A DNA stretch of 64,000 nt, taken from Escherichia coli. Lineage in GTDB: Bacteria; Pseudomonadota; Gammaproteobacteria; Enterobacterales; Enterobacteriaceae. The stretch lies in NCBI RefSeq assembly GCF_024700885.2, contig NZ_CP117016.1; one strand, 5' to 3'. The translations under genes and the position numbers were made by a program. How positions within the stretch are numbered: position 1 is the stretch's first letter; every line of letters begins with the position of its first letter. Under the pieces are notes generated by a model, which ran no database searches, had not been told where the DNA came from, and worked only from the letters and a program-made list of their open reading frames with translations. Below are positions 3,623-18,738 of the stretch, one piece after another.

Positions 3623-5428
3623 CTACTCAAATTCATCCCAGCCGTCCAGCTGGCGTCGTTCTTGTTGCATTTCACGCTGGAAAATCTCTTCCAGTTCGCG
3701 TCGGGCTTCCCTGGCGCGAGAAATTTGTACGGTGTCGGCATGCATTGGGATGAGCTCCCGCAACATCCGCATATCCAGGCGGCGAAAATGCAGTTGCGCC
3801 CGCTGCGCCTGATGTGGATGCATGCCTAGCGTGACCAGCGTCTTGCGCCCCAGCTCTAACGCACTGGAGAATGTCTCACGAGAAAACTGCGTCACCCCTG
3901 CCTGTAATAACTCATGCGCCTCCACACGTCCGCGCGCTCGCGCAAGAATATGTAAATGCGGAAAGTGCTGCTGGCATATTTCCACCAGTTTCATGGTGTC
4001 TTCCGGCTCATTACAGGTAATGACGATAGACTCAGCGGCCTCTGCACCCGCAGAACGTAAAAGATCTACCTGCGTGGCGTCGCCGTAATAAACTTTGTAG
4101 CCATATTTGCGCATCAGGTTAACGGCACTGATATCCCGCTCCAGCACAGTAATGCGCATTTTATTTGCCATCAGCAAACGACCAATCACCTGACCAAAAC
4201 GTCCAAAGCCCACGACAATGACCTGCGGTTTATCATCGTTGACCCACGGTTTTTCATCCTCTTCTTCCGGTCCGTTAAACTGGCGGGATAGCCATTTATC
4301 TACCAGCTTCATCAGCAGCGGCGTGGTCATCATGGAAAGCGTCACCGTCACCAGCAACAGCGCCATCTGGTCACCCTGGAATAAGCGTTGTGAAGAAGCG
4401 GTAGAAAAGAGCACAAAGGCAAACTCACCGCCCTGACTCAACACGCCAGCAAACTGCATCCGCTCTGAGCTACGCACGCCATACAGTCGCGCCAGCAGAT
4501 ACAGCACGAGAATTTTCACCGCCACCAGCACAACCACAGCTATCACTACCCACAACAGATGGGTATAAAGCACCCCGAGGTTGAGCGACATGCCGACAGA
4601 GATAAAGAACAAACCGAGCAGCAACCCCTTAAACGGATCGATAGCCGTTTCCAGTTCATGGCGATATTCACTTTCCGCCAGCAGCACGCCTGCAATAAAC
4701 GTACCGAGCGCCATCGACAGCCCCAGCGCATCCATAAACAATGCGGAACCCAACACCAGCAGCAACGTCGCGGCGGTGAACACTTCCCGCACGCCAGAAG
4801 CTGCAATAAAGCGGAATACCGGACGCAGTAAATAGCGCCCGCCAATCAGCATGCCGACAAACGCCAGCACCTTCATGCCGATCTTCATCCAGTCGAAATG
4901 TTCGTCTGCCGAACCCGCCAACAACGGCACTAACGCCAGTGCCGGGATCACTGCCAGATCCTGAAACAGCAGAACCGAAAACCCGAGCTGCCCGGATTCG
5001 CTGCGATTCATCCCTTTATCACGCATCAGTTGCAACGCCATTGCGGTTGAGGACATCGCAAGGCCAATACCACCGACCACCGCCGCCTGCCAGGCGAAAT
5101 CCGTCAGCATCAATAATCCCGCCAGCAACGCCGCGCTTAACAGCACCTGTGCCGCACCTACGCCAAAAATCGAACGCCGCAATTGCCAAAGCTTGGAGGG
5201 ATTCAACTCCAGGCCGATGATAAACATCAGGAACACCACGCCGAGTTCCGAAAAGTGGAGGATCTCATCGACGTCGCTAATAAAACCCAGCCCCCACGGG
5301 CCAATTGCAATCCCTGCCAGCAAATATCCCAACACAGCGCCAATACCCAGCCGCGATGCCAGCGGCACCGCAGCCACCGCCGCGAAGAGAAACAACACTC
5401 CTGCGAGTAAAAAATCGGAACCTTCCAT
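3623..5428 (-). CDS. kefB: Glutathione-regulated K+/H+ efflux antiporter KefB, 601 aa
   Basis: Multi-TM N-terminal domain plus C-terminal KTN/Rossmann segment ([17 protein letters not shown]); matches remembered KefB. Confidence 0.95.
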
Positions 5429-13738: not shown

Positions 13739-15017
<1,279 letters not shown>

Positions 15018-15029
15018 TTACGCATAAAC

Positions 15030-15075
15030 CAATGTGAAATTATAATCACAAAATATGCATAAAAAATCACTGAAT
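15030..15075. promoter_or_regulatory. Putative tandem ARG boxes (ArgR operator) in the argD promoter region
   Basis: Two adjacent 18-bp segments (atgtgaaattataatcac and atatgcataaaaaatcac) approximate the TGAAT-w4-ATTCA palindrome, 3 bp apart, upstream of the argD start. Confidence 0.4.
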
Positions 15076-15087
15076 GGCAATCAGAAA

Positions 15088-15651
15088 TCAGCGATGCAGG
15101 AAATTAGCCAGCAGTTGATGTCCTTGTTCGCTGAGAATACTTTCCGGGTGGAACTGCACACCTTCCAGATCCCACTGGCGATGGCGAATCCCCATAATCT
15201 CGCGGGTTTCGCTCCAGGCCGTCACTTCAAAGCACGCTGGTAATGAGTCAGGTTCCACCACCAGCGAATGGTAGCGTGTCACGGTAAGTGGATTTGCCAG
15301 CCCCCGAAATACGCCCTCACCGCTATGTGTAATCGGCGAGGTTTTGCCGTGCATGACCTTTGCGGCGCGCACAACTTTGCCGCCAAATGCCTGTGCCATT
15401 GCCTGATGACCGAGGCAGACACCAAGAATCGGCAAGCGTCCGGCATAGTGGCGAATAACGTCAAGGGAGATCCCGGCTTCATCTGGCGTACAGGGGCCGG
15501 GTGAGATGACAATTTTTTGTGGTTTAAGGGCGTCGATATCCGCCAACGTCAACGCATCGTTGCGCTTAACCAGCACATCCGCCCCCAGTTCACAAAAGTA
15601 CTGGTAGAGGTTCCAGGTAAAAGAATCGTAGTTATCAATAAGCAGGATCAT
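15088..15651 (-). CDS. pabA: Aminodeoxychorismate synthase glutamine amidotransferase subunit PabA, 187 aa
   Basis: Class-I glutamine amidotransferase translation ([15 protein letters not shown] with catalytic Cys; HS...FHPES); matches remembered PabA. Confidence 0.95.
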
Positions 15652-15682
15652 GGCGGCTCCGGTACGAAAGAACCGCGCTATT

Positions 15683-16285
15683 TTACTCAGATTCCCCGGC
15701 TTCGCTTACCACTTTGCTAAATATCATCTGCAGCGCGGTGAGATCCCCCATTGCCCCACTCTGATTTGCCTGATTCCAGGCCTCTTTTTCGATACCCTGC
15801 CAGCTCAGTTGGTAGCCCGCATGAATCGCCAGTTGCTCGAAGAAGATCCGCTGTGCCAGACCACTTCCCACCCGAAAGGGATGCAGCACGTTGATTTCAC
15901 AATAGTAATGTGCCAGCCGCTCGACGAACTTCCCTTTCTCCAGGCCAACCAGATAACCTTCTTCCTCCAGATCCTGCATCAGGGCATTGCCCTCTTTTTC
16001 GATATAGGCAAAGTGGCAGAACGGCGTATCGCCCTGATAAATATCAACTTCACGCAGTTGCCCCGCCCAGTCGAAAATATCCTGATACAGCTGGCGATGG
16101 ATAGTGCGCAAATGCGGTAAACCGCGCACCAGCGGACCAAGCTCAATGGTCGCAGCACGCAGCGCCGTCATTTCGTAAGCGGCCTGTTCCAGCCGCTGCT
16201 GCTGGTGGATGTTCAGCCGGTTACGCATGATATCAAGGCCAGGATAAAGATACGGATCGCGCCCTTCGCCGAATTTATCGCTCAT
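15683..16285 (-). CDS. fic: Fic-domain protein Fic, 200 aa
   Basis: Translation [24 protein letters not shown]...; the Fic-motif position reads [12 protein letters not shown]. Confidence 0.9.
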
Positions 16286-16442
16286 AGTGCCTCCTCAGCT
16301 CTTCAAGGCGCGCTAAAGCCTCTGCGGCAGTAAGAGTGACTAAAGGCATCTCGACGCCTTCAAGACGGCGACTGGCCTGGAAATTACGATTACGCTGAAG
16401 CTCCCAGAGACGGGACTTTTGCTTATCGGTGAGTTTCTTCAC
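16275..16442 (-). CDS. yhfG: YhfG, 55-aa small protein, putative Fic partner / antitoxin-like
   Basis: Hand-translated minus-strand frame: GTG start (16440-16442), product [55 protein letters not shown]; its stop lies 11 nt inside the fic 5' end. Below the ORF-track size cutoff. Confidence 0.75.
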
Positions 16443-16515
16443 TTGATGCCTCCCTGAACGTGTCCATTTGCCACAAGTATAAGCGGCAAATCCGGGTTAC
16501 GCCGGGAGAGCAGAA

Positions 16516-16537
16516 GCGCGGGCAAGATTGCCCGCGC
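16516..16537 (-). terminator. Hairpin downstream of ppiA (candidate terminator)
   Basis: gcgcgggcaagattgcccgcgc perfect inverted repeat about 10 bp 3' of the ppiA stop; the downstream U-tract is weak. Confidence 0.5.
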
Positions 16538-16546
16538 GAGAAATCA

Positions 16547-17128
<582 letters not shown>

Positions 17129-17248
17129 TTAACAAACAGAGCAGAAAAAAAGCAAGTGAAGAGATTCTAAATAGCCTTCAAGAACAAGGCCATCCCTTTA
17201 CCTAATTTTACGTATCTGAAATATATGTAACCTGACGATCACTTTTTA

Positions 17249-17389: not shown

Positions 17390-18559
17390 ATGACTAACAG
17401 CAATCGCATCAAGCTCACATGGATTAGCTTTCTCTCCTACGCACTGACCGGTGCGTTGGTTATTGTCACCGGGATGGTGATGGGAAATATCGCCGATTAT
17501 TTCAATCTGCCTGTTTCCAGTATGAGTAACACCTTCACCTTCCTCAACGCCGGCATTTTAATCTCTATCTTCCTCAACGCCTGGCTGATGGAAATCGTCC
17601 CGTTGAAAACGCAGTTACGTTTTGGCTTTCTCCTGATGGTGCTGGCGGTTGCCGGTTTGATGTTCAGCCACAGCCTGGCGCTGTTCTCGGCGGCGATGTT
17701 CATTCTCGGGGTGGTCAGCGGCATCACCATGTCGATTGGTACATTCCTGATAACACAAATGTATGAAGGGCGTCAGCGCGGTTCCCGCCTGTTATTTACC
17801 GACTCCTTCTTCAGTATGGCCGGGATGATTTTCCCAATGATCGCCGCGTTTCTACTGGCGCGCAGCATTGAGTGGTACTGGGTTTATGCCTGCATCGGGC
17901 TGGTGTATGTCGCTATTTTTATTCTGACCTTCGGTTGTGAGTTCCCGGCACTGGGCAAACATGCACCAAAAACGGATGCTCCGGTAGTGAAAGAAAAATG
18001 GGGGATCGGCGTGCTGTTTCTCTCTGTTGCGGCGCTGTGCTACATCCTCGGTCAGTTAGGTTTTATCTCCTGGGTGCCGGAGTATGCCAAAGGCCTGGGC
18101 ATGAGCCTGAACGACGCTGGCACGCTGGTGAGTAACTTCTGGATGTCATATATGGTCGGCATGTGGGCGTTCAGCTTTATTCTTCGCTTCTTTGATTTGC
18201 AACGTATCCTGACCGTACTGGCGGGTCTGGCTGCGATTCTGATGTACGTCTTTAACACCGGAACACCGGCACATATGGCGTGGTCAATTCTCGCCCTGGG
18301 CTTCTTCTCCAGCGCGATCTATACCACCATCATCACCCTGGGTTCACAGCAGACCAAAGTACCGTCACCAAAACTGGTTAACTTTGTCCTGACCTGCGGG
18401 ACCATCGGTACTATGTTGACCTTTGTGGTTACCGGCCCGATTGTTGAACATAGCGGTCCGCAGGCGGCACTGCTTACAGCAAACGGTCTGTACGCTGTCG
18501 TCTTTGTGATGTGCTTCCTGTTAGGTTTCGTCAGCCGTCAGCCGTCACCGTCAGCATAA
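17390..18559 (+). CDS. tsgA: MFS-family transporter TsgA
   Basis: ORF track 389-aa translation with about 12 hydrophobic segments ([21 protein letters not shown]...); matches remembered TsgA. The annotated start might differ slightly. Confidence 0.88.
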
Positions 18560-18738
18560 CACCCTGACCTCTCATTAATTGCTCATGCCGGGCGGCGCTA
18601 TCGTCGTCCGGCCTTTTCCTCTCTTACCCTGCTACGTACATCTATTTCTATAAACCCGTTCATTTTGTCTGTTTTTTGCACAAACATGAAATGTCAGACA
18701 ATTCCGTGACTTAAGAAAATTTATACAAATCAGCAATA

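Follow-up and report, generated by a model that had tools for sequence, protein, structure and literature searches.

Conserved gene overlap, inhibitory partner and degenerate signature motif of the yhfG-fic pair upstream of pabA in Escherichia coli

Introduction

Fic enzymes that AMPylate their targets carry the signature HxFx[D/E]GNGRxxR, in which the acidic residue is assigned to Mg2+ and the two arginines (R1 and R2) to the ATP phosphates. The founding member of the family is Escherichia coli fic, whose product, together with that of the small upstream gene yhfG, has been renamed EcFicT/EcFicA and forms a stable 1:1 complex (structures 5JFF and 5JFZ; Stanger, Harms, Dehio and Schirmer, PLoS One 2016, PMC5033356). 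YhfG was predicted to be a Fic/Doc antitoxin already in 2009 (PMC2701414), and the question of which activity, substrate and target EcFicT has was explicit by 2016 at the latest, with structures in hand. Here we describe the yhfG-fic locus in a 64,000-nucleotide (nt) stretch of an E. coli genome (contig NZ_CP117016.1 of assembly GCF_024700885.2), which as a whole is called the window below. It holds the same gene pair as EcFicT/EcFicA of E. coli K-12, with identical overlap, motif, neighbours and promoter element.

Among the other described systems, the class I pair VbhT/VbhA of Bartonella schoenbuchensis (3SHG, 3ZC7 and 3ZCB) shares with EcFicT the fold and the N-terminal DPY segment (phmmer E=9e-33, about 33% identity). 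VbhA resembles YhfG in being a small upstream partner with an [S/T]xxxE[G/N] motif whose glutamate lies on R2 (PMC5033356). VbhT, however, has the canonical motif HPFREGNGRTLR, AMPylates GyrB and ParE, is toxic, is encoded on a plasmid and carries a fused BID secretion domain, and VbhA has three helices where YhfG, with an 8-residue deletion, has two. The closest canonical relative of known structure is Fic-1/AntF of Pseudomonas bijieensis 2P24 (8WT0, E=6e-50), which has the same numbering as EcFicT/YhfG (H135, R146, and S24/E28 in the partner) and the same complex architecture, with a root-mean-square deviation of 0.9 Å to 5JFF (PMC13327609). Unlike EcFicT, Fic-1 keeps E139, N141, R143, E29 and E36 and AMPylates GyrB, while the Fic-1/AntF complex deAMPylates GyrB. 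The kinase Doc and the phosphocholine transferase AnkX have the FIC fold with a non-canonical motif and use a donor or an orientation other than AMP from ATP (PMC5033356). Both are precedents for a different chemistry in EcFicT, but their motifs and substrates differ from those of EcFicT; AnkX, for example, binds the α-phosphate of CDP-choline through R1 (PMC5033356), where EcFicT has a leucine.

Results

The signature motif of EcFicT is degenerate

The features on which the comparison turns lie on the minus strand of the window:

15683..16285 (-), fic (EcFicT), coding for a FIC-domain protein of 200 amino acids (aa); ATG start, from the list of open reading frames; RefSeq 'fic'
16275..16442 (-), yhfG (EcFicA), a homologue of class I FicA antitoxins that gives the inhibitory helix; GTG start, 55 aa; RefSeq 'yhfG'
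15848..15883 (-), degenerate Fic signature motif, Fic residues 135-146, placed by ungapped alignment to VbhT and Fic-1
16356..16373 (-), YhfG inhibition motif S24-R-R-L-E28-G29 ([S/T]xxxE[G/N]), read from the sequence
16275..16285 (-), the 11-nt yhfG/fic overlap ATGAGCGATAA, read on the strand; an arrangement of translational coupling
16290..16296 (-), GAGGAGG, the Shine-Dalgarno sequence of fic, within the yhfG coding sequence, read on the strand
16121..16123 (-), codon of G55, the site of the classical fic-1 (G55R) allele; by translation it is Gly (wild type) here

The Fic protein belongs to the FIC/Fido family by its match to Pfam PF02661 (51.2 bits against a cut-off of 24, E=2.4e-13). Residues 135-146 read H135-P-F-R-V139-G-S141-G-L143-A-Q-R146, and phmmer aligns them without a gap to HPFREGNGRAQR of Fic-1 (8WT0) and HPFREGNGRTLR of VbhT (3SHG, 3ZCB). 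Because the alignments to these two proven AMP-transferases are ungapped across the motif, the register is right, and an error of register was rejected. In this register three substitutions are real, namely E/D to V139, N to S141 and R1 to L143, as the original prediction had stated for the acidic residue, the asparagine and the first arginine. His135, Phe137, both glycines and Arg146 (R2) are retained. EcFicT thus lacks the canonical signature of AMPylating Fic enzymes, and a regular-expression search found no second, canonical Fic motif elsewhere in the protein.

That such a protein would not be a standard AMP-transferase, or would use a different chemistry, was also part of the prediction, and it agrees with the primary structural work. 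There the EcFicT motif is said to 'significantly deviate' from the canonical one, and neither auto- nor target-adenylylation was detected, mutation of the inhibition motif making no difference. That ATP is no longer bound was put down mainly to leucine in place of R1 and to a hydrophobic side chain at the D/E position (PMC5033356). The comparison of adenylylation with and without functional YhfG, which the prediction had proposed, is therefore already in the literature with a negative outcome, and the proposed motif alignment has likewise been published. The same authors suggested that A36, T40, Y67, F71 and V139 make up a new, hydrophobic groove for substrate, and found 43 positions, conserved specifically in this clade, that gather about the groove of the active site and the flap (PMC5033356).

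YhfG is a class I partner of Fic

As predicted originally, yhfG is a GTG-initiated gene for 55 aa that ends 11 nt inside fic on the same strand; the list of open reading frames and the reading of the strand both bear this out. On the minus strand the 3' end of yhfG reads ...GAG CTG AGG AGG CAC TAT GAG CGA TAA, and since the ATG of fic is embedded there, the 11 nt of ATGAGCGATAA are common to both genes. A GGGAGG sequence precedes the GTG of yhfG by 6 nt. The possibility that yhfG is a chance open reading frame was rejected in view of its match to Pfam PF10832 (E=1.6e-24), the corresponding chains in the Protein Data Bank (PDB), its retention in 80 species and its low ratio of nonsynonymous to synonymous substitution rates (dN/dS).

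Fic is 99% identical to PDB chains 5JFZ_A and 5JFF_A (E of about 1e-134) and YhfG matches 5JFF_B and 5JFZ_B (E of about 4e-30); both proteins of the pair match chains of these entries, so their complex has already been crystallised. Against K-12 (UniProt P20605), 199 of the 200 Fic residues are identical, the sole change being A118G, and YhfG differs at one of its 55 residues (S51R). These are strain-level polymorphisms, away from the Fic motif, the inhibition motif and G55. This comparison leaves aside the G55R, E28G and tag changes that were engineered into the crystallised proteins; 5JFF has R at 55. At the DNA level, several complete E. coli chromosomes match positions 15000-17200 with 100% identity, and of 5426 complete E. 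coli genomes 5423 cover at least 80% of the region, which RefSeq annotates as argD, pabA, fic, yhfG and ppiA.

The S24-RRL-E28-G29 segment of YhfG fits the class I inhibition motif, and its gene lies directly upstream of fic, as expected of class I. In the crystal structure S24 and E28 contact R146 of Fic, with a salt bridge between E28 and R146 (PMC5033356); the salt bridge of the inhibitor glutamate to R2 that marks class I is hence known from published structures of near-identical proteins. The complex melts at 63 °C, and the E28G change lowers this melting temperature (Tm) by 10 °C (PMC5033356). The enzyme-inhibitor or antitoxin-type partnership that had been proposed from gene arrangement is thus borne out by the class I motif and the 1:1 co-crystals, and the physical interaction on which it depended was answered by those same published structures (PMC5033356). 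As to the features of type II toxin-antitoxin systems, the pair was scored as having adjacent, co-transcribed genes with mutually binding products. It does not have the mobility of such systems, seen as patchy distribution and horizontal transfer, since it holds the same position in 80 of 80 species genomes; being vertically inherited, it is unlike a mobile module.

A natural knockout of yhfG exists. In Escherichia albertii NBRC 107761 (near position 3880 of the locus) codon W13 is changed from TGG to TGA, with fic, the overlap and pabA intact. The same nonsense codon has been reported for E. albertii strain TW07627 (PMC5033356, S4 Fig legend), so that it is probably a trait of the lineage and not a sequencing error. 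A natural nonsense allele beside an intact fic argues against a lethal toxin that must be guarded. Moreover, strains deleted for fic are viable, and filamentation requires the gain-of-function allele fic-1 with G55R (PMC5033356).

In some public assemblies YhfG and Fic occur as in-frame fusions (P0001, 252 aa with 15 member sequences, and P0005, 233 aa). The P0001 fusion is explained by the loss of one base just 5' of the 11-nt overlap, so that the protein reads ...ELRVTMSDKF..., and would turn a class I system with a separate inhibitor into a class II-like one with an N-terminal inhibitor; it could be a real variant or an assembly error.

The pair and its degenerate site in 80 species

A scan of one genome per species gave 80 loci from Escherichia to Edaphovirga, with Salmonella, Citrobacter, Klebsiella, Enterobacter, Kosakonia, Raoultella, Cedecea and Shimwellia among the genera sampled. 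Gene order was determined in these loci by tblastn with five window proteins, and residues were counted in 81 sequences of 64-100% identity. None of the 80 loci departs from the order ppiA-yhfG-fic, and in 78 of them yhfG and fic overlap by exactly 11 nt. This is in line with the earlier description of close EcFicT homologues as all enterobacterial, vertically inherited and located between ppiA/B and pabA (PMC5033356).

Nine Fic residues are invariant in all 81 sequences (H135, F137, R138, G140, G142, R146, T40, G55 and Y83). A hydrophobic residue stands at 139 in 79 of them and L, I, M or V at 143 in 73; N and S alternate at 141, and position 36 is Ala in 68. The changes are coupled: R143 always occurs with E36 and F67 (8/8), and a hydrophobic residue at 143 always with a non-acidic residue at 36 and Y67 (73/73). 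Edaphovirga, at the same syntenic locus, has the canonical motif HPFRDGNGRAQR, and seven species, again at the syntenic locus, have a hydrophobic residue (or Thr) at 139 and retain R143. Read as a series, these sequences indicate that the motif was lost stepwise, the D/E position first and then R143 together with E36 and F67.

In YhfG the [S/T]xxxE[G/N] motif is present in 75 of the 80 species, in 63 of them as SRRLEG. Three Trabulsiella loci (L032, L042 and L080) have SRRLER, in which Gly29 is replaced by Arg and the [G/N] position is broken with the glutamate retained. Among the readable YhfG sequences an Asp in place of this Glu is found solely in Edaphovirga, where the motif is STALDG though the Fic motif is canonical.

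Positions 139 and 143 are hydrophobic in all 120 closest database clusters. Among the best 150 representatives of a library of 1.84 billion proteins, 119 relatives bear the motif, and in 111 of these it is canonical; the non-canonical exceptions are mostly fragments of the same clade as EcFicT. Because 111 of the 119 distant relatives are canonical, the degenerate form of the motif is derived in the EcFicT clade. We also calculated dN/dS by the Nei-Gojobori method for genes of the window against nine species. The values, 0.03-0.11 (fic), 0.05-0.29 (yhfG) and 0.02-0.09 (pabA), indicate purifying selection on fic as strong as that on pabA. As dN/dS is low, the degenerate site is a selected derived state and not the result of decay. 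A decaying pseudogene was rejected for fic on these dN/dS values and the invariance of the catalytic residues.

Linkage to pabA and the proposed transcription unit

The neighbourhood of the pair in the window comprises the following features:

15652..15682 (-), fic-pabA spacer of 31 nt with a GGAG ribosome-binding site, from reading of the strand and the terminator scan
15088..15651 (-), pabA (aminodeoxychorismate synthase component 2), from the list of open reading frames, annotation and synteny
16476..16481 (-), TATACT, about 35 nt 5' of the yhfG GTG, candidate for the -10 element of the fic promoter, which depends on sigma-S
16516..16537 (-), GC-rich hairpin GCGCGGGCAATCTTGCCCGCGC past the ppiA stop codon, probable ppiA terminator as judged from the sequence

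Between 13.7 and 18.6 kb of the window, the minus strand carries argD, pabA, fic, yhfG and ppiA, after which tsgA lies on the plus strand. The ATG of pabA is located 31 nt past the fic stop codon, and a simple terminator scan of the minus strand found no terminator-like hairpin between the two genes. In the species genomes pabA is found downstream of fic in 77 of 80 loci; argD follows in 76 of those 77, the remaining locus ending inside pabA. The fic-pabA spacer measures 29-34 nt in 67 of 80 loci. Co-transcription of the pair with pabA, as originally predicted, agrees with the short terminator-free gap and with the position of pabA 3' of fic in 77 of 80 loci, but pabA is not the unexpected partner it was held to be: the ppiA-ficA-ficT-pabA position has been described as conserved (PMC5033356, S4 Fig legend). 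The connection is an old one, since a table of PMC5650638 already labels Fic 'PABA or folate' (PABA, p-aminobenzoate).

The fic promoter is listed with the -10 element TATACT (PMC5650638, Table 2) and is cited as biochemically dependent on RNA polymerase holoenzyme with sigma-S (PMC3141248). We infer that this published element is the site at 16476..16481 (-) of the window. The TATACT element is kept in other genera in the DNA around the loci. A simple scan of the minus strand for sigma-70 promoter-like sites detected none, either within fic or upstream of yhfG; the scan is blind to the published sigma-S promoter because that promoter has no -35 element. Upstream, the hairpin GCGCGGGCAATCTTGCCCGCGC, which the simple scanner did not flag because its T-tract is short, is the probable terminator of ppiA and would separate ppiA from a yhfG-fic-pabA unit. 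A literature search for the wording of a 'fic-pabA' operon gave no match. In 1991 Tran and Nichols are said to have placed pabA promoters both upstream of fic and inside it.

Some loci carry insertions after fic. In Enterobacter sp. kpr-6 (locus L027, 4643..5429, minus strand) a mobile cassette of a RelE-family toxin (PF06296, E=9e-37) and an HTH_3 antitoxin has been inserted in opposite orientation into the fic-pabA spacer, normally about 31 nt long, so that the conserved unit is split. An insert of similar size lies in the spacer of locus L034. In Dryocola boscaweniae (locus L066, 5108..8151) a sugar-use island follows fic at the usual position of pabA and codes for a RafY-type glycoporin, a GH1 beta-glucosidase and a small phosphotransferase system (PTS) IIA-like open reading frame, the PTS label coming from reading of the sequence alone; pabA and argD are absent within 4 kb.

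Beyond ppiA, tsgA (17390..18578 on the plus strand of the window) has a 7-nt indel near its 3' end and codes for 389 aa ending in ...SRQPSPSA, compared with 393 aa in the four other Escherichia genomes compared. The Prokaryotic Genome Annotation Pipeline marks it as 'frameshifted' (pseudogene) in the identical strain 1190. Because the change is limited to the last ~10 residues, the transporter may still work. Scans of the whole 64-kb window gave neither an Rfam family at the gathering score nor any gene for a tRNA or tmRNA.

Discussion

We conclude that the locus very likely holds a class I Fic pair of toxin-antitoxin type, ficA-ficT. Its position between ppiA and pabA would have become fixed in an ancestor of the Enterobacteriaceae, with vertical inheritance ever since. 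Translation of yhfG and fic is coupled through the 11-nt overlap, and the two genes lie with pabA in one terminator-free unit, presumably driven by the sigma-S-dependent fic promoter with its -10 element TATACT. The YhfG helix puts S24 and E28 on R146 of Fic in a tight 1:1 complex. The active site of EcFicT has lost the residues for ATP and Mg2+ (now V139, L143 and S141, with the coupled changes of E36 to A and F67 to Y) and retains the catalytic His135 as general base, the glycines of the anion nest and R146. In the mechanism that we propose, EcFicT is not an AMP-transferase and yet a working protein, most likely an enzyme whose histidine and anion nest would transfer a phosphoryl-linked group to a target. 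The donor would be less charged and more hydrophobic than ATP, and YhfG would gate the site through the E28-R146 lock. The pair would have a stationary-phase housekeeping role, possibly connected to PABA or folate, rather than one in addiction or defence.

Several points weigh against this picture. An enzyme with a new donor is argued for from conservation, and a non-catalytic binding role fits the sequences equally well. Co-transcription with pabA fits the spacing, the terminator-free gap and the conservation of gene order, which are the grounds on which it rests. The linkage itself is breakable, because in 3 of 80 species the gene immediately downstream of fic is not pabA and in 7 the spacer is enlarged. 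Finally, the literature on EcFicT toxicity is inconsistent: two reviews count the protein as a growth-inhibiting toxin or one that adenylylates gyrase and topoisomerase IV (PMC10886550, section 4.2; PMC7758455, Table 1 and section 3), which is at odds with the primary structural work (PMC5033356).

Could EcFicT then be a pseudo-enzyme, which has lost catalysis and serves as a binding or regulatory scaffold that YhfG stabilises rather than inhibits? This is the main rival explanation, and we consider it possible, if unlikely. Three motif residues that contact ATP or Mg2+ are gone, no activity was seen experimentally, and the 10 °C drop in Tm caused by E28G gives the lock a structural role (PMC5033356); the yhfG nonsense allele of E. 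albertii, moreover, is tolerated. On the other hand, none of the 81 sequences varies at His135, at either motif glycine or at R146, and the YhfG glutamate is kept in all readable sequences save one, which has Asp. That precisely the general base and the inhibitory lock are preserved is not what one would expect of a purely structural protein, nor do the 43 clade-specific positions that cluster at the active-site groove and the flap (PMC5033356) speak for it. A conventional, active type II system, whose toxin would AMPylate gyrase and topoisomerase IV like VbhT, YeFicT and PaFicT, is essentially excluded. The gene order, the overlap, the small upstream antitoxin and the tight complex do match FicTA modules, the two reviews state growth inhibition or gyrase adenylylation (PMC10886550, PMC7758455), and the fic-1 allele causes filamentation (PMC5033356). 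However, the motif is without R1, D/E and N, and the primary authors saw no auto- or target-adenylylation; Δfic is viable, the phenotype needing the gain of function by G55R (PMC5033356). Unlike mobile toxin-antitoxin modules, the locus is inherited vertically and is syntenic in 80 species, and in E. albertii yhfG is naturally knocked out with fic intact.

A further alternative, that the EcFicT-YhfG complex acts solely as a deAMPylase, is suggested by Fic-1 (8WT0, E=6e-50), which when bound to AntF deAMPylates GyrB and for this needs E28 of AntF and a stable complex (PMC13327609, 2026). YhfG has the equivalent E28, EcFicT keeps H135 and R146, and the lost R1 at position 143 contacts the β-phosphate of ATP (PMC5033356), which is absent from an AMP-tyrosine substrate. 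Fic-1-AntF, however, also needs a divalent metal and an acidic cleft made of E29, E36 and E139 of Fic-1 and E28 of AntF (PMC13327609). EcFicT has Q29, A36 and V139 instead, and the cleft glutamates are absent across the clade. With E29, E36 and E139 of the cleft replaced, a pure deAMPylase is disfavoured, and we regard it as highly improbable. Nor is E. coli K-12 known to have a canonical FicT with a product in need of reversal, which counts against this alternative as well.

Returning to a working EcFicT-YhfG pair, one may ask for a more specific function. We consider it a speculative and rather improbable proposal that the pair is a sigma-S-induced enzyme of an undescribed Fic chemistry, with a hydrophobic, non-ATP phosphoryl donor bound in the A36/Y67/F71/V139 groove and a target that belongs to PABA/folate metabolism or regulates it. 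The idea predates the present finding, having been raised in 1991 and 2016. If true, such a target would explain the retention of the pair in the pabA unit across about 80 enterobacterial species.

The gene overlap, the altered motif, the complex and the link to pabA are all published, and the original prediction was a correct finding that was already known. It gives no new handle on the activity, substrate or target of this founding member of the Fic family. The re-analysis of the species genomes provides independent confirmation that the degenerate site is conserved, selected and stepwise derived rather than decayed, and it adds a sequence-based argument against the idea that the EcFicT-YhfG complex is a deAMPylase only.

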